A DNA stretch of 64,000 nucleotides, from assembly GCF_003334335.1 (NCBI RefSeq), contig NZ_QOWQ01000001.1; one strand, given 5' to 3'. The DNA comes from Escherichia coli (GTDB taxonomy: Bacteria; Pseudomonadota; Gammaproteobacteria; Enterobacterales; Enterobacteriaceae). Numbering within the stretch: the first letter of the stretch is position 1; every line of letters begins with the position of its first letter. Below are positions 2-27,324 of this stretch, piece after piece. A program made the translations under genes and the position numbers. The notes beneath the pieces are model-generated. The model ran no database searches. It was not told the DNA's origin and worked only from the letters and a program-made list of their open reading frames with translations.

Positions 2-1801
2 CGTATCCACGTTGTAGGGAAAGGCCAGGCTGCGAATCCGGTGGCCTGCCATCACTGCAACAATGCCCCTTGCGTTACGGCTTGTCCGGTTAATGCTCTG
101 ACTTTCCAGTCCGATAGCGTACAACTGGACGAGCAAAAATGTATTGGTTGTAAAAGATGCGCAATCGCTTGCCCCTTTGGCGTCGTTGAGATGGTCGATA
201 CGATTGCGCAGAAATGCGACCTTTGTAACCAGCGCAGTTCCGGCACGCAAGCCTGTATTGAAGTTTGCCCAACACAGGCGTTACGACTGATGGACGATAA
301 AGGGTTGCAGCAGATAAAGGTGGCCCGCCAGCGCAAAACGGCAGCAGGAAAAGCGTCATCAGACGCTCAGCCATCTCGCAGTGCAGCGTTGCTCCCCGTT
401 AACTCGCGTAAAGGCGCAGATAAAATTTCAGCGAGTGAACGGAAAACCCACTTTGGCGAAATATATTGCGGGCTGGATCCACAACAAGCGACTTATGAGA
501 GTGACCGCTGTGTTTATTGTGCCGAAAAAGCTAACTGCAACTGGCATTGCCCGCTGCATAACGCTATTCCGGATTACATCCGTCTGGTACAGGAAGGAAA
601 GATTATTGAAGCGGCAGAACTTTGCCACCAGACCAGTTCCTTACCAGAAATTTGCGGCAGGGTATGTCCACAGGACCGTCTTTGTGAAGGCGCATGTACT
701 TTGAAAGATCACTCGGGCGCAGTCTCTATCGGTAATCTGGAACGCTACATCACCGATACCGCGCTGGCGATGGGCTGGCGTCCCGATGTCAGCAAAGTTG
801 TTCCCCGTAGCGAAAAAGTGGCGGTGATTGGCGCTGGGCCTGCAGGGTTAGGGTGTGCTGATATTCTGGCGCGCGCAGGAGTTCAGGTCGATGTCTTTGA
901 TCGCCATCCAGAAATTGGCGGTATGCTGACTTTTGGCATTCCTCCTTTCAAACTCGATAAAACGGTATTAAGCCAGCGGCGAGAGATATTCACCGCAATG
1001 GGAATCGACTTTCATCTTAACTGTGAAATTGGCCGCGATATTACCTTTAGCGATTTAACTTCTGAATATGATGCAGTTTTCATCGGCGTGGGGACTTACG
1101 GGATGATGCGAGCAGATCTGCCGCATGAAGATGCGCCCGGTGTCATTCAGGCTCTACCGTTCCTGACTGCCCATACCCGCCAGCTCATGGGATTGCCGGA
1201 GTCTGAAGAGTATCCGCTGACGGACGTGGAAGGTAAGCGAGTCGTGGTATTGGGCGGTGGCGATACGACAATGGATTGTTTGCGGACTTCCATCCGCCTC
1301 AATGCCGCCAGCGTGACCTGCGCGTATCGTCGTGATGAAGTCAGTATGCCGGGCTCGCGCAAAGAGGTGGTTAATGCGCGCGAGGAAGGTGTCGAGTTTC
1401 AGTTCAATGTTCAACCGCAATATATCGCTTGTGACGAAGATGGGCGTTTAACTGCGGTGGGCCTGATTCGTACCGCCATGGGTGAGCCGGGGCCGGATGG
1501 TCGCCGTCGTCCTCGTCCGGTAGCGGGTTCAGAGTTTGAATTGCCCGCCGATGTTCTGATTATGGCCTTTGGTTTCCAGGCGCATGCCATGCCGTGGTTG
1601 CAGGGCAGCGGAATTAAACTCGATAAATGGGGCCTGATTCAAACCGGTGACGTCGGGTATTTACCTACCCAGACGCATCTGAAAAAAGTCTTTGCTGGTG
1701 GTGATGCAGTTCATGGCGCGGATCTGGTTGTCACTGCAATGGCCGCAGGAAGGCAGGCGGCGCGCGATATGTTAACTCTGTTTGATACGAAGGCATCGTG
1801 A
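2..1801 (+). CDS. ygfT: Fused 4Fe-4S ferredoxin / GltD-like NAD(P)H-FAD oxidoreductase. The 5' end lies outside the window; the reading frame is open from nt 2.
   Basis: The ORF is open to the window edge. It has CxxCxxCxxxCP ferredoxin motifs followed by [11 protein letters not shown] and GGGDTAMDC dinucleotide-binding motifs. The sequence is recognised as the E. coli YgfT/AegA family. Confidence 0.9.
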
Positions 1802-2289
1802 TGAAATCGTTAATTATCGTTAATCCGGCTGACTGTATTGGCTGCCGTACTTGTGAAGTAGCCTGTGTGGTCGCTCACCCTTCAGAACAGGAGTTGAATG
1901 CCGATGTCTTTTTACCCCGGCTGAAGGTACAGCGACTGGACAGCATCAGTGCGCCGGTGATGTGCCATCAGTGTGAAAACGCCCCTTGTGTTGGCGCTTG
2001 CCCCGTGGGGGCGCTGACGATGGGCGAGCAGGTGGTGCAGACCAATTCTGCCCGTTGTATTGGCTGTCAGAGTTGCGTCAGTGCGTGCCCGTTTGGAATG
2101 ATCACCATTCAGTCGTTGCCGGGGGATACCCGACAACAAATTGTGAAATGCGATCTCTGTGAACAGCGGGAAGAGGGGCCAGCCTGCGTTGAATCTTGCC
2201 CAACACAGGCGCTGCAGTTGCTTACTGAAAGAGAACTCAGGCGAGTCCGCCAGCAGCGTATTGTTGCCAGCGGTGAGAATCCTCTCTGA
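1801..2289 (+). CDS. ygfS: 4Fe-4S dicluster ferredoxin-type protein
   Basis: The protein is 162 aa from the ATG at 1801, and a GTG at 1798 is also in frame. The start overlaps the ygfT stop. It carries four CxxCxxCxxxCP-type motifs. Confidence 0.9.
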
Positions 2290-6626: not shown

Positions 6627-9497
6627 TTATATTTTTTCCAGCGCAGTGAGTATTTTCTCCGGTGTGAAATGCCATTCGCGTAACCAGATGCCGCATGCAT
6701 CGTGAATTGCGGTAGCAATCGCCGGAGCTGCGCCATTTACACCGATTTCCGAGATCGATTTCGCCCCGAACGGGCCGACTTTATCGTCGCTCGGCACCAG
6801 CACAGCGCGGAAATCACGCGGAATGTCACCAATTTTCGGTGCGCCGTAACTGCGTAAATCACGCGTTAACGGGTGACCTTCGGCGTCATAAATGATCTCT
6901 TCGCTCATACTGTGGCCGATAGCACGCAGGGTGGCACCGTAGATTTGTCCCAACGCTAACTCTGGATTGACCGGTGTACCGCAGTCCAGCAAGGCGTAGA
7001 ATTTATCCAGGCGGATTTCACCCGTACGCGTGTTGACGGCAACTTCAGCGAAGTTTGCGCCATACGGGAAGGCGAAATCAGGCGTGATATAACTGCCAGT
7101 TCCCACCAGTGAACCAAAGCCGGTGCCGGTTTCGCCTTTATGGGCAATATCCCCGAAACTAACTTCGCCTTTCTTGCCGCGCACGACGCCCGGCGTTGCC
7201 AGTTGAACATCTGCCACTGGCTCACCCAACATTTGCGCGCCGTGGAACAGAATTTTCTCCCGTAGATTTTCCGCTGCCAAACGCGCCGCGTTACCCGAGA
7301 AGCAAGTACCGGACGAGGCATATGCGCCTTTATCAAACAACGCATGATCGGTATCACCGGAGATAACATGCACGTCCTGCGGTGGGCAGTGCAGCACTTC
7401 TGCTGCCAGTTTCGTCACTACAGTATCCAGACCAGTACCAATATCCGCACCGCCAGAATGAACGATAAAGGTGCCGTCCGATTCCAGTTTGATCATGCAG
7501 TTAGCCTGATCGATATCCGGGATACCCGATTTCTGCATGATAATGGCGACGCCGCGACCGATGTGCCAGTCACCATTTTGCGGTTTCGGTGACGACCATT
7601 GGATCATCTCGCGACCCTGACGCAGGATCTCTTCCAGTGCACAGCTGGCGGCGGAAGGAACGGAGGTCGGCGCTTTACCTTCACCGATTGCACCGAGAAT
7701 TTTCAGCTCTTGCCCTTCGTGTACCCGGTTACGTTCGATAATTTCCAGTTGGTCGATCTGTAACTGTTCAGCCAGTTCCGCTAATGCCATGGTGATAGCG
7801 AAGTTACCTTTCGGTGCGCCATAACCCTGATAAGCACCATTTGGGCAAATGTTGCTGTAGTAGGTGGTGACCTGGAAATCGACGTTATCGCACGGATATA
7901 ACGGCAGCGACAGCGCCGGTCCGTTACACGGTACGGTGAGTGAGTGGTTGCCGTAAGGGCCAGTGTTGGCGCGGAAATCCATCTTCACTGCCGTCAGGCG
8001 ACCATCTTTTTTCGCTCCCAGTTTGACGGTGACTTTCGCGACGTGACGAGAGGTGTTAGCAATAAACTCTTCTTCACGGGTGTAGCGGAACAGTACCGGA
8101 CGCCCGGTCACGCAGGTTGCCCAGGCGCACACTTCTTCCAGCAGGATGTCCTGTTTGGAACCAAAACCGCCGCCAACTCGCTCTTTAATGACATGAACTT
8201 TATGCTGTTTCATGCCCACGAGGCGCGCGACCTGGCGGCGTAAGTGCCATGGTACCTGGGTGGAGGCGTGGATAACCAGACGATCGCCGTCCATACGAGT
8301 AAAGCAGATATGTGTTTCAGTCGGGCACTGCTGCGCTTGCGTTGAGTTATAGGTTCGCTCAATGATCACATCGGCATCGGCAAAGCCTTTGTCCATATCG
8401 CCAATATGACCATGAATACTGGCGGCGATATTTTTGCGAGGGCGAGAACCGATCGGGAAGTTGATGATCATATGCTCGCCGCGCTGGGCTGCATGGCTGT
8501 TATCGTCTTCCAGAGTATCTGGCGCACCAGCAACATACACCACCGGTTCATCGTGCACGACAGGCGCATCTTCCGCCATTGCTTCGTCGATCGACATTAC
8601 CGGCTTAAGCACTTCATATTCAACGTCGATGAGCTTCAGTGCTTCGAGCGCAATTTCTTCACTTTCTGCGACGACCGCAGCAACACGATCGCCGACGTGA
8701 CGCATTTTCTTGCCGAACATACGGCGGTCAAGCGGTGACGGTTCCGGTGCGCTCTGACCACCCGGGGTATAGTAGATATCCGGGCAATTCAGGTGAGTAA
8801 TAACGTGAACGACGCCCGGTAAGGCTTCAGCTTTGCTGACATCCAGATGAGTAATCAGTGCGTGAGCGTGTGGGCTACGTAACATTTTAATGACGCAGGC
8901 GTCAGCCGTTACGCGGTCTTCAACATAGCAGGGTTTCGCCTGCACCATTTTCGCGGCATCAGTTTTAGGATAATGCTTACCAATGACTTCTAGGTCGTCA
9001 CGGAAAGTCGGAGCGATATCAATGGTGGCCTGCGGATTATTTTTACGTGCAACCGCCAGTTCAATGACCTGATAGTATTGCTGCCAGCCAGCATCGCGGC
9101 TGAACAAACCAGAAAGCGCGTCGTCGATCTCTTCGCGGGTAGGTGCGGCGATGCGATCGAGAAGATCGGTGATAATCAGAGCTGCAGCTGGATCGTTATA
9201 ACCAGACTGCACCACGCCAACATCAACCATTGCCTGTTGAACCAGACTTAACTCGTTCCATTTGCCCAGAGATTCTGCGGTACGAATATCTGCCTTCTCT
9301 AACTGTGCGGCAATAAGCAAGGACGCGTTAACGATATTACCGTTAAAGATTATTGCGTCAGAACCGGCAAACCCGAAACCATCATCACTGTTGCGTACAG
9401 AGTGCATTCCCATGTTAAACAACAGCTTTTGCACGTTTTCGCCTGGATTAACGGTTAGCTCCTGAGGCGCGCCATTTAAAGTAAAGTGGATGATCAT
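6627..9497 (-). CDS. xdhD: Molybdopterin hydroxylase large subunit with a fused N-terminal 2Fe-2S-like domain (putative hypoxanthine oxidase / selenate reductase Mo subunit)
   Basis: 956 aa. The central and C-terminal parts match the aldehyde oxidase / xanthine dehydrogenase a/b-hammerhead and Moco-binding domains (GGGFG motif). The sequence is recognised as XdhD (YgfN). Confidence 0.93.
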   Translation of the reverse strand: MIIHFTLNGAPQELTVNPGENVQKLLFNMGMHSVRNSDDGFGFAGSDAIIFNGNIVNASLLIAAQLEKADIRTAESLGKWNELSLVQQAMVDVGVVQSGYNDPAAALIITDLLDRIAAPTREEIDDALSGLFSRDAGWQQYYQVIELAVARKNNPQATIDIAPTFRDDLEVIGKHYPKTDAAKMVQAKPCYVEDRVTADACVIKMLRSPHAHALITHLDVSKAEALPGVVHVITHLNCPDIYYTPGGQSAPEPSPLDRRMFGKKMRHVGDRVAAVVAESEEIALEALKLIDVEYEVLKPVMSIDEAMAEDAPVVHDEPVVYVAGAPDTLEDDNSHAAQRGEHMIINFPIGSRPRKNIAASIHGHIGDMDKGFADADVIIERTYNSTQAQQCPTETHICFTRMDGDRLVIHASTQVPWHLRRQVARLVGMKQHKVHVIKERVGGGFGSKQDILLEEVCAWATCVTGRPVLFRYTREEEFIANTSRHVAKVTVKLGAKKDGRLTAVKMDFRANTGPYGNHSLTVPCNGPALSLPLYPCDNVDFQVTTYYSNICPNGAYQGYGAPKGNFAITMALAELAEQLQIDQLEIIERNRVHEGQELKILGAIGEGKAPTSVPSAASCALEEILRQGREMIQWSSPKPQNGDWHIGRGVAIIMQKSGIPDIDQANCMIKLESDGTFIVHSGGADIGTGLDTVVTKLAAEVLHCPPQDVHVISGDTDHALFDKGAYASSGTCFSGNAARLAAENLREKILFHGAQMLGEPVADVQLATPGVVRGKKGEVSFGDIAHKGETGTGFGSLVGTGSYITPDFAFPYGANFAEVAVNTRTGEIRLDKFYALLDCGTPVNPELALGQIYGATLRAIGHSMSEEIIYDAEGHPLTRDLRSYGAPKIGDIPRDFRAVLVPSDDKVGPFGAKSISEIGVNGAAPAIATAIHDACGIWLREWHFTPEKILTALEKI

Positions 9498-10273
9498 ACG
9501 GCTTCCTCCCCAGCCTGTTGGCAGTCGGCATACAGGTCGGCTACCAGAACTCCCGTGATATAGCGTTTATAGGCCACGCTGCCCCGCAAATCTTCCTGCG
9601 GGAAAATGGCGTTGGCGACAGCCTGTTCAAGTGCATTGCCTTCCAGATTTTGTTTTTCGACATCATGCAGACGCAGTGCTTTACTGGCGACGCCATCCAG
9701 CGCAATTCGCATACCGTCGTGGTCTGTCATTGCAACGGCTGCCGTCACGACGGTTAAACCTGCCTGAGAACGGCTAATTTTGCGGGTCGCACAGGTGCGA
9801 TACGGATCTTTAATGATAATTTCGGTTAGCAGGCGATCGCATGGGCAGGCCAGGTAGTCCTCGATTGACAGCGTTTCGCCGTTGCCAAAAACCAGTTCAG
9901 CATCCAGTGCCAACAGGACGGGAAGCAGCACCGACTCTTCCTGGCGGGCGGCGATTTCACCACCAATGGTCGACTGATTACGAACATGGCGTGAGTAAAC
10001 AAAACCGAGGGCTTCACGCAGCGCTGCAGGAATAAATCGCGCATCACGCAGTGGCTGCAAGCGAGACATTGCGCCAATCCGCAGTGCACCGTTATCCCAG
10101 TCAACCCAGTCCAGTTCCAGATCCTGTAAGGAAATGGCAATCTTTTTATCGGTACGGGTTGGTGTAGCATTGAGTTTGCTGCCCCCGGCGAACCAGACGG
10201 CTTCATCCTGGTAGCGGCGCTTCAGTTCCAGCGCCTGTTCGACAGAGTCGGGCCTGAAAAATTGTTCAATCAT
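9494..10273 (-). CDS. ygfM: FAD-binding subunit of the molybdenum hydroxylase (CO dehydrogenase flavoprotein-like)
   Basis: 259 aa. The stop overlaps the xdhD start by 4 nt (ATGA). It resembles XdhB (AGGS/TxL motif). Confidence 0.9.
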   Translation of the reverse strand: MIEQFFRPDSVEQALELKRRYQDEAVWFAGGSKLNATPTRTDKKIAISLQDLELDWVDWDNGALRIGAMSRLQPLRDARFIPAALREALGFVYSRHVRNQSTIGGEIAARQEESVLLPVLLALDAELVFGNGETLSIEDYLACPCDRLLTEIIIKDPYRTCATRKISRSQAGLTVVTAAVAMTDHDGMRIALDGVASKALRLHDVEKQNLEGNALEQAVANAIFPQEDLRGSVAYKRYITGVLVADLYADCQQAGEEAV

Positions 10274-26844: not shown

Positions 26845-27324
26845 TTACTTCGTTTTCTCGCAATCCAGAACTGTATTTACAATCATCTGATACCCCGTGC
26901 AGCGACAAAGATTTCCCGCCAGTCCGCGACGAATTTCCGTAATGGTTAATGGCTTCTCGCGTGGTTTCGCCAGCATTGCCGTGGTAGCCATAATCAGGCC
27001 AGGCGTACAAAACCCGCACTGCACTGCGCCGGATTTCGCATAAGCCTGCTGAACATGAGAAAGTTTTCCGCCTTTCGCTTCACCTTCCAGCGTGCGGATC
27101 TCTTTTCCTTCAGCCCAGGCGGCAAGGTATAAGCAACTGTCTATTGCTGTGCCGTCGACCAACACCGTACAGGCACCACATTCACCCACGCAGCACCCTT
27201 GTTTGACACTTAGCAGTCCTTGTTCGCGGAGTAATTCCGAGAGCGGCGTGCCTGGTGCGGCGTGAAGCTGAAAAGGCATCCCGTTAATGGTGCATTCGAT
27301 GGTAATTGTTTCGCTGTGATTCAT
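26845..27324 (-). CDS. xdhC: Xanthine dehydrogenase 2Fe-2S subunit
   Basis: 159 aa with the canonical Cys motifs [20 protein letters not shown] and NLCRCTGY. Confidence 0.94.

Follow-up and report, generated by a model that had tools for sequence, protein, structure and literature searches.

The window analysed here is a stretch of 64,000 nucleotides of the Escherichia coli contig NZ_QOWQ01000001.1 (assembly GCF_003334335.1), and it carries the xdhD gene (ygfN) at positions 6627..9497 on the minus strand. XdhD, a protein of 956 amino acids, is composed of a pseudo-FeS module, an a/b hammerhead domain and two Moco-binding domains. The genome also encodes an FAD-binding subunit of 259 amino acids, YgfM (9494..10273, minus strand; FAD_binding_5, E=6e-20; TIGR03312, 489.7 bits), and the ygfM stop codon overlaps the xdhD start codon in an ATGA (overlap sequence GTATGATC). 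An Fe-S flavoprotein of 1032 amino acids, YgfK (11655..14753, minus strand; Fer4_20, Pyr_redox_2, TIGR03315), is encoded in the same operon, and between ygfK and ygfM lies the amidohydrolase gene ssnA (10324..11718, minus strand; Amidohydro_1, E=2.5e-56), whose real start is probably further downstream. Three genes of the Moco cytidylylation/selenium-cofactor trait group are present near xdhD, namely mocA (15075-15653, minus strand; TIGR03310), yqeC (15756-16526, plus strand; TIGR03172) and yqeB (16574-18199, plus strand; TIGR03309); they are accessory genes of the selenium-dependent molybdenum hydroxylase trait. The window further contains xdhC (26845..27324, minus strand; NF007387, 341.9 bits), which codes for the canonical 2x[2Fe-2S] subunit of XdhABC (159 amino acids) with its eight ligand cysteines.

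The Moco part of XdhD places the protein in the xanthine oxidase family (PF01315, E=2.7e-31; PF02738, E=8.1e-73; PF20256, E=3.4e-68), and the whole protein matches the NCBIfam model TIGR03313 (Mo/Fe-S-binding subunit, YgfN/XdhD) with 2122.8 bits for a cut-off of 1101.9. Residues 1-150, translated from 9048-9497 on the minus strand, are clearly homologous to the two [2Fe-2S] domains. Indeed (i) BLASTP aligns residues 7-146 of the window's own XdhC with residues 1-139 of XdhD (33% identity, E=2e-17), (ii) the Pfam model Fer2_2 (PF01799) matches residues 73-145 (E=2.6e-12, 47.1 bits for a cut-off of 30.3), and (iii) a phmmer search of PDB sequences retrieves 3hrd_D over residues 3-154 (E=1.3e-17), that is, over the whole two-domain FeS subunit, together with 4zoh_C, 1t3q_A, 1rm6_C and CoxS 1n5w_A. 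The plant-type [2Fe-2S] ferredoxin model PF00111 found no match on XdhD in the Pfam search, though a beta-grasp fold is predicted there. A preliminary description had aligned residues 1-150 with XdhC and had named as refuting evidence an N-terminus unrelated to ferredoxin-like domains; the alignment is upheld by BLASTP, Fer2_2 and 3hrd_D, and BLASTP, Pfam and phmmer all return homology.

Residues 1-72 (9282..9497, minus strand) correspond to a cluster-free relic of the plant-ferredoxin-type domain (Fe/S II, FAD-proximal) and residues 73-150 (9048..9281, minus strand) to a cluster-free relic of the helical [2Fe-2S] domain (Fe/S I, Moco-proximal). In the first, the PF00111 ligand motif C-x4/5-C-x2-C...C is absent and the positions are occupied by D38 (codon 9384-9386), A44 (9366-9368), D47 (9357-9359) and S59 (9321-9323). 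The second is homologous to Fer2_2 but lacks the C-x2-C ... C-x-C ligands, which are replaced by S98 (9204-9206), N101 (9195-9197), S133 (9099-9101) and D135 (9093-9095). On alignment, these eight residues stand, in this order, opposite C44, C49, C52, C64, C103, C106, C140 and C142 of XdhC, and every XdhC/XdhD motif pair quoted in the preliminary description is correct. Translation and cysteine positions also bear out its statement that the N-terminus is free of cysteine: residues 1-189 contain none, the first being C190 (codon 8928-8930), followed by 201, 238 and later ones. At the cysteine frequency of the rest of XdhD, such an absence from 189 residues has a chance probability of about 0.019; the replacement of all eight otherwise invariant ligand columns, and its fixation, is the stronger evidence.

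Since all eight ligand cysteines are replaced by Asp, Ala, Ser or Asn, the XdhD module cannot hold either cluster, and since no ligand cysteine is left, the wire Moco to Fe/S I to Fe/S II to FAD cannot exist inside XdhD, as had been concluded earlier. It is very probable that the module contains no Fe-S cluster and serves as a structural scaffold. Reviews give two [2Fe-2S] clusters per protomer as the minimum for xanthine-oxidase-family enzymes (PMC9370002); XdhD has none of the eight ligands and YgfM no compensating motif, and the absence of the clusters is deduced from sequence.

An artefact (misalignment, sequencing error, pseudogene or non-homologous region) can practically be dismissed. 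Nothing was found in its favour, and it is countered by the agreement of three independent homology tests, by an intact gene that matches E. coli genomes at 100% identity and is present at >=95% identity in 5177 of 5426 complete ones, by low dN/dS values and by the purification of XdhD in active form (PMC12507026). The ligand loss is not an E. coli quirk either. None of the eight cysteines is found in any of the 79 genome orthologues, which span Enterobacterales, Aeromonas, Vibrionaceae, Ferrimonas, Rhodocyclaceae and Burkholderiales; the ligand positions are likewise without cysteine in 120/120 close database relatives, and a Vescimonas-type clade (121 proteins from Oscillospiraceae, Clostridia and Spirochaetales) has 0-1 cysteine there.

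In contrast, all eight ligand cysteines are kept in a sister clade (120/120 members; Holophaga, Treponema, Rectinemataceae and other Spirochaetota), and in most of these proteins PF00111 is detected. Apart from the cysteines, its YgfM-XdhD orthologues (TIGR03313/TIGR03312) share with XdhD the same architecture, partner and neighbourhood. Indeed, they are about 52% identical to XdhD over the full length with an equal domain order, ygfM lies upstream of xdhD and overlaps its start by 4 nt, and the neighbours are uricolytic (ssnA/hyuA-type amidohydrolases, ygeW-, ygeX- and ygeY-type genes, yqeB/yqeC, selD). A domain swap as the source of their N-terminus was rejected, this N-terminus being nearer to those of the 0-Cys proteins (0.39-0.44 identity) than to those of distant 8-Cys proteins (0.33). 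The 8-Cys orthologues and XdhD form one clade with 100% support, in which the former represent the canonical enzyme and XdhD the cluster-free derivative.

Bootstrapped NJ trees of the Moco part resolve four lineages with 100% support each; the 0-Cys lineages come out as monophyletic with 2.5% support only, and a nested position of the 8-Cys clade has 71%. The losses may possibly have occurred separately in the three 0-Cys lineages. S37, D38, D47, S98, N101 and D135 are nevertheless common to all three, and C to D, like C to N, requires two nucleotide changes, so that these identical two-step replacements argue for a single loss. The same pattern could be expected if the old pockets held another redox-active or metal cofactor, such as a mononuclear or oxygen-ligated metal bound by D38/D47/S59 at site II and by S98/N101/S133(H)/D135 at site I, by which both stepping stones would be kept. 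Asp has also appeared independently at positions 38 and 47 in P0006, which belongs to a separate clade and has lost site II alone, a hint that the substituted residues might do more than fill space; moreover, Aeromonas-type proteins have a His at position 133, and YgfM and its FAD motifs are still conserved, as with a working wire. However, we know of no [2Fe-2S] or other low-potential centre held by Asp, Ser and Asn alone, positions 59 (S/N/G), 133 (S/I/H) and 135 (D/S/A) differ between the 0-Cys lineages, the ligand columns (5/8 invariant, for 25-37% overall in the domain) are not clearly more conserved than their surroundings, and the Asp pair may merely stabilise a loop or bind Mg/Ca. A substitute cofactor is thus considered very unlikely.

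Purifying selection on the module itself is strong. The dN/dS ratio is 0.025-0.075 for residues 1-150 and 0.011-0.026 for the rest of XdhD, and the mean identity among the 79 orthologues is 73% for residues 1-72, 85% for residues 73-150 and 86-88% for the Moco domains. When the clades are compared at equal divergence of the Moco domains, 0-Cys proteins show no faster divergence of the N-terminal module or of YgfM than 8-Cys proteins; together with the low dN/dS, this equal relative divergence led to the rejection of a decaying relic under relaxed selection. The AF2 model of XdhD (mean pLDDT 88.3, pTM 0.90; pLDDT 84-96 in the N-terminus) predicts a beta-grasp pattern for residues 1-72 (E2-7, E10-15, H22-28, E48-51, E54-57, H63-66, E70-72; pLDDT 88-96) and four helices for residues 73-150 (H85-93, H102-115, H121-130, H138-153; pLDDT 84-96). 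Among PDB structures it is closest to the fused FeS-Moco aldehyde oxidoreductases 1sij and 1dgj (TM 0.82-0.87, rmsd 3.9-4.4 Å over the full length), and 1rm6_A and bovine XDH are also matched. According to this model, the cluster-free module is folded and in the canonical position, a placement that may lean toward the canonical one as 8-Cys relatives were included in the AF2 alignment.

The preliminary description had treated ygfK-ssnA-ygfM-xdhD as one enzyme, either a purine hydroxylase or a selenate reductase. Two studies from 2025 have settled the question otherwise (PMC12507026; bioRxiv 10.1101/2025.04.24.650524). XdhD co-purifies with YgfM, and the pair uses NADH to reduce urate to 2,8-dioxopurine, XdhD taking the C6 oxygen off urate; the assay was an end-point assay without kinetics, with 10 uM enzyme and 1 mM NADH (PMC12507026). 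The 2,8-dioxopurine is in turn reduced by YgfK, a separate NAD(P)H-dependent enzyme, and SsnA is a ring-opening amidohydrolase (PMC12507026; bioRxiv 10.1101/2025.04.24.650524; commentary PMC12990295). The XdhD-YgfM pair has an AF3 ipTM of 0.94 (PMC12990295), and YgfM is labelled the electron-transfer module in the 2025 papers. It follows that the physiological direction is into the Mo site, by urate reduction, and not out of it as had been assumed, and that YgfK, as a separate enzyme, is not an electron partner that has to be reached. Of the earlier proposal that electrons reach YgfM and YgfK by another route or that the domain is purely structural, the structural role is the part best supported.

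Fe-S sites are known on FAD-type subunits, in PaoB and in the beta subunit of 4-hydroxybenzoyl-CoA reductase. A compensating site on YgfM was rejected: no conserved 4-Cys motif was found among 84 orthologues, and of the four cysteines of the E. coli protein only C161 and C251 are widespread, C143/C145 being rare. A dedicated FeS subunit acting in trans is equally unsupported as a general solution, an additional XdhC-like ORF being present within 6 kb of xdhD in only 13 of 80 loci and belonging there, each time, to a complete canonical XDH. Directly upstream of ygfM-xdhD in Vescimonas, Aliivibrio and Kluyvera there is, however, an entire XDH operon that includes an FeS subunit of its own, and the isofunctional clostridial XdhAC uses a donor other than NAD(P)H (bioRxiv 10.1101/2025.04.24.650524). 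This would fit a distinct Fe-S protein docking close to the pterin or to the active-site funnel and feeding Mo, YgfM then not being the physiological entry. Candidate donors would be YgfK, the ferredoxin-flavoproteins YgfS/YgfT or AegA, which belong to formate-dependent use of urate, or the neighbouring canonical XDH through its FeS subunit. Purified XdhD with only a co-purifying band of ~30 kDa was nevertheless active on NADH alone (PMC12507026), the canonical FeS-subunit site on XdhD is filled, in the model, by its own relic domain, the additional FeS-subunit genes are few and part of canonical XDHs, and YgfT/AegA may simply regenerate NAD(P)H. A separate donor is accordingly judged unlikely.

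In the normal mechanism of the xanthine oxidase family, Mo=S accepts a hydride. Intramolecular transfer could thus be dispensed with if Mo=S(e) were reduced within the active site by a hydride or two-electron donor, be it NADH or some other reductant, in ping-pong with urate, leaving YgfM and the relic a structural or regulatory role; the loss of both clusters is tolerated and has been fixed in two large clades. Nonetheless, to our knowledge no xanthine-oxidase-family enzyme has its Mo site reduced by NADH. Furthermore, the FAD motif residues G30, G31, R98, N99 and G105 of YgfM are invariant in the 84 orthologues and all lineages examined show translational coupling of ygfM to xdhD, both of which speak against this mechanism. 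The published assay says nothing on the route, and an xdhA deletion strain left xanthine unconsumed, so that xanthine at least is not the reductant of XdhD (PMC12507026). Ping-pong reduction is therefore held to be highly improbable.

The best explanation overall, with a probability of roughly 0.6, is that a cluster-free relic is kept as a scaffold and that electrons pass from NADH and the YgfM FAD across it. The relic module would pack against the Moco domains and form a docking platform for YgfM, reducing equivalents would enter via NADH and the YgfM FAD, and electrons would have to pass through the cofactor-free module on their way to the pterin/Mo. Spacings of ~15 Å for Mo-Fe/S I, ~12 Å for Fe/S I-Fe/S II and ~8 Å for Fe/S II-FAD were reportedly found by Enroth et al. 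in 2000 and Dobbek et al. in 1999, and from these spacings of solved family members a flavin-to-pterin gap of roughly 22-27 Å edge to edge would follow. By our own estimate with the Moser-Dutton rule, the crossing would be a slow single-step tunnelling at ~1e-3 to 1 per second, so that FAD-to-Mo transfer would limit the overall rate; the published end-point assay and the slow urate use by E. coli would still be explained at this speed. Tunnelling as the route is put forward tentatively, at a little less than even odds. Indeed, physiological electron transfer is usually taken to be limited to ~14 Å, which a gap of 22-27 Å without cofactors far exceeds, and YgfM with its FAD motifs is strongly conserved, a sign that the flavin does useful work and a poor fit with a very slow step. 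It is possible, though rather unlikely, that XdhD-YgfM is the first xanthine-oxidase-family flavo-molybdoenzyme without an Fe-S relay that is efficient by a novel route, a solution that would have been reached more than once in view of the independent Asp pair of P0006 and of perhaps separate losses in the 0-Cys lineages. Routes that can be named for such an efficient enzyme are a non-cysteinyl centre in the old pockets, a large flavin-to-pterin domain movement and direct hydride delivery at Mo.

Known systems differ from XdhD in one or more of these features. The aldehyde oxidoreductases (MOP) of Desulfovibrio gigas and D. desulfuricans (1sij, 1vlb, 1dgj) are likewise single chains with two N-terminal FeS-type domains followed by Moco domains and share 24-26% identity with XdhD, but they have two [2Fe-2S] clusters and no FAD subunit, whereas in XdhD the cluster ligands are missing and an FAD subunit is present. 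E. coli XdhABC and the xanthine dehydrogenases of Rhodobacter capsulatus and bovine origin combine, like XdhD, Moco, FeS-type and FAD modules and act on purines with NAD(H), but oxidise (hypo)xanthine at C2/C8 through an intact chain from Moco via Fe/S I and Fe/S II to FAD, of which XdhD has neither cluster. The selenium-dependent 2,8-dioxopurine dehydrogenase XdhAC of Clostridium sporogenes, for which selenium dependence is established, shares with XdhD the reaction, an interconversion of urate and 2,8-dioxopurine, the fused FeS-type/Moco architecture and the pathway, but is described with iron-sulfur cluster binding domains, has no FAD subunit and does not use NAD(P)H (bioRxiv 10.1101/2025.04.24.650524); with E. 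coli XdhD, the counterpart from C. difficile shares only ~26% identity (PMC12507026). The closest solved sequence relative of residues 1-154, the small FeS subunit of Eubacterium barkeri nicotinate dehydrogenase (3hrd chain D), also belongs to a selenium-dependent molybdenum hydroxylase; it is, however, a separate subunit that binds both clusters, and its cysteine columns face D/A/D/S/S/N/S/D in XdhD.

In summary, the sequence of XdhD adds a missing relay to what the 2025 studies established, namely the urate reductase activity of XdhD-YgfM and YgfK as a separate enzyme. The missing cysteines and wire are not mentioned in the openly accessible, searchable papers naming XdhD. By its sequence, XdhD contradicts the review statement that every xanthine-oxidase-family enzyme has at least two [2Fe-2S] clusters (PMC9370002), and the name of TIGR03313, which asserts Fe-S binding, is contradicted by the sequence of E. 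coli-type and Vescimonas-type members and needs correcting. The E. coli enzyme and hundreds of relatives from gut Proteobacteria and Oscillospiraceae lack the cluster ligands, keep the flavin subunit and are reported as NADH-active. XdhD catalyses the first step of anaerobic urate degradation, a pathway that is being engineered into anti-gout probiotics (PMC12507026). If loss of the wire makes urate reduction intrinsically slow, this would be the obvious step to improve, for example via an 8-Cys orthologue; if urate reduction is fast, it would represent an electron-transfer solution new to molybdenum enzymology. Either way, the orthologue pair with and without clusters constitutes a natural experiment.

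The window holds the purine/urate locus of E. coli, xdhABC...ygfK-ssnA-ygfM-xdhD, whose xdhD gene and reaction are already known. XdhD, the molybdenum subunit of urate reductase, is encoded by an ORF of 956 codons (6627-9497, minus strand), and the end of ygfM (9494-10273, minus strand), the gene of its FAD subunit, overlaps the beginning of xdhD in an ATGA. The window xdhD is 100% identical to that of complete E. coli genomes, in which PGAP labels it 'molybdopterin-dependent oxidoreductase Mo/Fe-S-binding subunit'; the gene is present at 95% identity or more in 5177 of 5426 such genomes. No megablast match to xdhD was obtained in 248 of the 5426, so some lineages can do without the gene. In E. 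coli O121 (NZ_CP119441.1, 3911180-3915386), an IS2 element interrupts xdhD, and the detached N-terminal piece, which has no cysteine, is named '2Fe-2S iron-sulfur cluster-binding protein' by PGAP, a clear case of annotation carried over by homology. The xdhD frame of Citrobacter murliniae (CP163158.1; locus L065, 6001-6880) ends after 292 codons and the DNA match goes on, which is either a frameshift/pseudogene or a sequencing error. A database protein of 1215 aa (P0180; 43 member sequences, Logan assemblies) combines YgfM and XdhD in one 259+956-residue product at 100% identity; a one-base indel at the ATGA overlap, as a variant or as an error, probably explains these fusions. The listed GTG start of the ssnA ORF (10324-11718, minus strand) overlaps the ygfK end by 64 nt, and a start site downstream of this GTG is probable for the annotated SsnA of 442 aa.

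Neither [2Fe-2S] cluster can be ligated by XdhD in the known way. The preliminary description had claimed that the N-terminal region (codons 1-150, exactly 9048-9497) is free of cysteine, that it aligns with XdhC, the 2x[2Fe-2S] subunit encoded in the same window, and that every cluster ligand is replaced. All of this holds: (i) the first of the 16 cysteines of XdhD is residue 190, (ii) XdhC shares 33% identity with XdhD residues 1-139 (E=2e-17), and (iii) the eight ligand columns are occupied by D38, A44, D47 and S59 at the FAD-proximal Fe/S II site and by S98, N101, S133 and D135 at the Moco-proximal Fe/S I site. The motif pairs quoted there are each accurate. In Pfam, the helical [2Fe-2S] domain (PF01799) is matched at residues 73-145 above the cut-off, and the plant-type domain (PF00111) gave no match in XdhD. 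Among sequences of solved structures, the best match is 3hrd_D, the small FeS subunit of selenium-dependent nicotinate dehydrogenase (E=1.3e-17, XdhD residues 3-154, both domains), followed by 4zoh_C, quinoline oxidoreductase, 4-hydroxybenzoyl-CoA reductase gamma and CoxS. With the XdhC alignment and the PF01799 and 3hrd_D matches, the homology of the XdhD N-terminus to [2Fe-2S] domains is not in doubt.

This cluster loss is fixed, old and widespread. Indeed, none of the eight ligand columns holds a cysteine in any of 79 full-length orthologues (one genome per species, 69-100% identity; Enterobacterales, Aeromonas, Vibrionaceae, Ferrimonas, Rhodocyclaceae and Burkholderiales), where the replacement residues are nearly invariant, nor in the 120 top-ranking relatives of XdhD in the database. 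Among representatives of 50%-identity clusters, further lineages with no ligand cysteine (0-Cys) came up, namely P0001/P0151 from Vescimonas fastidiosa (pattern DADNSNID) and the metagenomic proteins P0003 and P0118, together with a half-degenerate protein, P0006 (DGDG + CCCC); the full set of eight is present in nearly all other fused relatives listed, except for P0048 and P0075, which are partial alignments. In the Vescimonas-type clade, no fewer than 121 sequences (Oscillospiraceae, Clostridia, Spirochaetales) have 0-1 cysteines at the ligand columns. The eight cysteines are kept by P0165 and by 120 of its 120 relatives, proteins about 52% identical to XdhD that come from Holophaga, Treponema, Rectinemataceae, other Spirochaetota and a Magnetospirillaceae MAG; these 8-Cys YgfM-XdhD orthologues are the closest canonical counterparts of XdhD.

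A ygfM-like FAD-subunit gene overlaps the start of the molybdenum-subunit gene in every lineage examined, with eight, four or no ligand cysteines alike, and the 8-Cys loci are surrounded by the same uricolytic set (ssnA/hyuA-type amidohydrolases, ygeW-, ygeX- and ygeY-type genes, yqeB/yqeC and selD). Since this sister clade has the same ygfM and uricolytic neighbours, the ancestral enzyme had the canonical FAD/2x[2Fe-2S]/Moco set, and XdhD of E. coli is a derived form that has lost both clusters and kept the flavin subunit. In Vescimonas (locus L082, 3814-10880), Aliivibrio (L051, 1385-8874) and Kluyvera (L008-L010, L016), a complete canonical XDH with Moco, 8-Cys FeS and FAD subunits is encoded directly upstream of the cluster-free ygfM-xdhD, in the same orientation; as XDH makes urate and XdhD consumes it, the two enzymes together would be redox-neutral.

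In neighbour-joining trees of the Moco part (724 columns, 200 bootstraps), the XdhD clade as a whole is supported at 100%, as is each of its proteobacterial 0-Cys, Vescimonas-type 0-Cys, P0003+P0118 0-Cys and 8-Cys groups. Monophyly of the 0-Cys lineages received 2.5% support, and nesting of the 8-Cys clade among them 71%. S37, D38, D47, S98, N101 and mostly D135 are common to all three 0-Cys lineages, and since replacing Cys by Asp or by Asn takes two nucleotide substitutions in either case, these shared replacements would favour a single loss. Convergence on Asp does occur: P0006, which belongs to another clade and has lost the FAD-proximal site alone, likewise has Asp at positions 38 and 47. 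The P0006 locus (L083, 1479-4310; GCA_003358065.1, contig PJEL010024581.1) has a ygfM-like gene upstream, and its Moco-proximal site is intact (CCCC).

The enzyme retains its N-terminal module in conserved, folded form. An AlphaFold2 model of XdhD, based on 94 aligned sequences from both clades, has a mean pLDDT of 88.3 and a pTM of 0.90; residues 1-160 (pLDDT 84-96) form a beta-grasp with four helices after it, as in the two FeS domains. The best whole-chain superpositions in the PDB are with the Desulfovibrio fused FeS-Moco aldehyde oxidoreductases 1sij and 1dgj (TM 0.82-0.87, rmsd 3.9-4.4 Å), Desulfovibrio MOP being the closest solved architecture; they place the relic at the usual position of the cluster domains in a model whose alignment includes 8-Cys relatives. 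Comparisons among Escherichia give dN/dS values of 0.025-0.075 over codons 1-150 and of 0.011-0.026 over the remainder of xdhD, and mean orthologue identity to E. coli is 73% for residues 1-72, 85% for residues 73-150 and 86-88% in the Moco domains. When Moco-domain divergence is matched (about 75-80%), the module is 64-74% identical in the 0-Cys clade versus 63-69% in the 8-Cys clade, and YgfM 41-57% versus 43-48%, so neither the module nor YgfM came under weaker constraint when the clusters were lost. A decaying relic is ruled out by the low dN/dS and by conservation equal to that of the 8-Cys clade.

The FAD motifs of YgfM are kept, with G30, G31, R98, N99 and G105 invariant in 84 sequences, and no conserved four-cysteine motif for a replacement cluster was found in YgfM. 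At residue 106, the flavin-subunit motif T-I/L-G-G-N reads T-I/L-G-G-E in 82 of 84 YgfM partners of proteobacterial, P0003/P0118-type and P0006-type molybdenum subunits and still has N in 8-Cys partners, XdhB and Vescimonas, which may be a flavin-site change correlated with cluster loss.

Li et al. (2025) purified tagged XdhD together with a protein of ~30 kDa, taken as YgfM, and detected 2,8-dioxopurine by LC-MS from 10 µM enzyme, 1 mM NADH and 1 mM urate; rates, spectra and metal contents were not reported (PMC12507026). In a commentary by Percudani, the flavin subunit 'provides the electron-transfer module' (AF3 ipTM 0.94; PMC12990295). The clostridial isofunctional analogue of XdhD, XdhAC, has Fe-S domains and no flavin subunit, is selenium-dependent and does not use NAD(P)H (Liu et al., bioRxiv 10.1101/2025.04.24.650524). 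This 2025 work settles the choice between purine hydroxylase and selenate reductase that the preliminary description had treated as open. The structural conclusion of that description was right and its functional framing is outdated: YgfK is a separate Fe-S flavoenzyme reducing 2,8-dioxopurine, so electrons need not pass from XdhD to YgfK. The missing cysteines are not mentioned in the 2025 urate papers or in other searchable papers naming XdhD, and the cluster-free state, its phylogenetic spread and its conflict with the proposed electron path appear undescribed in the searchable literature. What bioRxiv 10.1101/2025.05.07.652715 contains on XdhD probably reflects homology of its N-terminus to PaoA, not a real complex.

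We consider it highly probable (about 0.9) that the XdhD N-terminus is a cluster-free scaffold, which would be retained to link the Moco domains structurally with YgfM. In bovine XDH and CO dehydrogenase, Mo to Fe/S I spans ~15 Å, Fe/S I to Fe/S II ~12 Å and Fe/S II to flavin ~8 Å, from which the flavin-to-pterin edge distance should be roughly 22-27 Å. Two electrons would have to cross from FADH2 to Mo over this cluster-free gap, at about 1e-3 to 1 per second according to the Moser-Dutton rule (zero driving force, reorganisation energy ~0.7 eV), an estimated rate much too low for an ordinary enzyme. With 10 µM enzyme, such a rate would still build up product to hundreds of micromolar within an hour, so the published assay is blind to the difference between a crippled and a working wire. 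The preferred reading of the route, held tentatively, is a slow, rate-limiting transfer from the YgfM flavin, which is intact in its motifs and co-purifies with XdhD (PMC12507026). A non-cysteinyl centre in the old cluster pockets is weakly suggested by the convergent Asp pair at positions 38/47. Alternatively, reduction could occur directly at the Mo site, or an external Fe-S donor (YgfS/YgfT/AegA of formate-dependent urate use, YgfK or a neighbouring XDH) could serve XdhD; ygfT and ygfS are present in the window (41-2289, plus strand). YgfT bears the name 'formate-dependent uric acid utilization protein', and its match covers model positions 55-639, which puts its start outside the window. 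YgfS is a poly-ferredoxin of the HydN type, and both proteins may supply the urate pathway with reducing power.

XdhD belongs to NCBIfam TIGR03313 and, by its Moco domains, is a genuine member of the xanthine oxidase family, whose members have 'minimally, a pair of [2Fe-2S]' clusters according to a recent review (PMC9370002), and it lacks this usual minimal redox complement. A flavin-containing member of the family without Fe-S centres is unexpected to a molybdenum-enzyme specialist, and the 8-Cys orthologues are natural controls for the question of clusters in XdhD.
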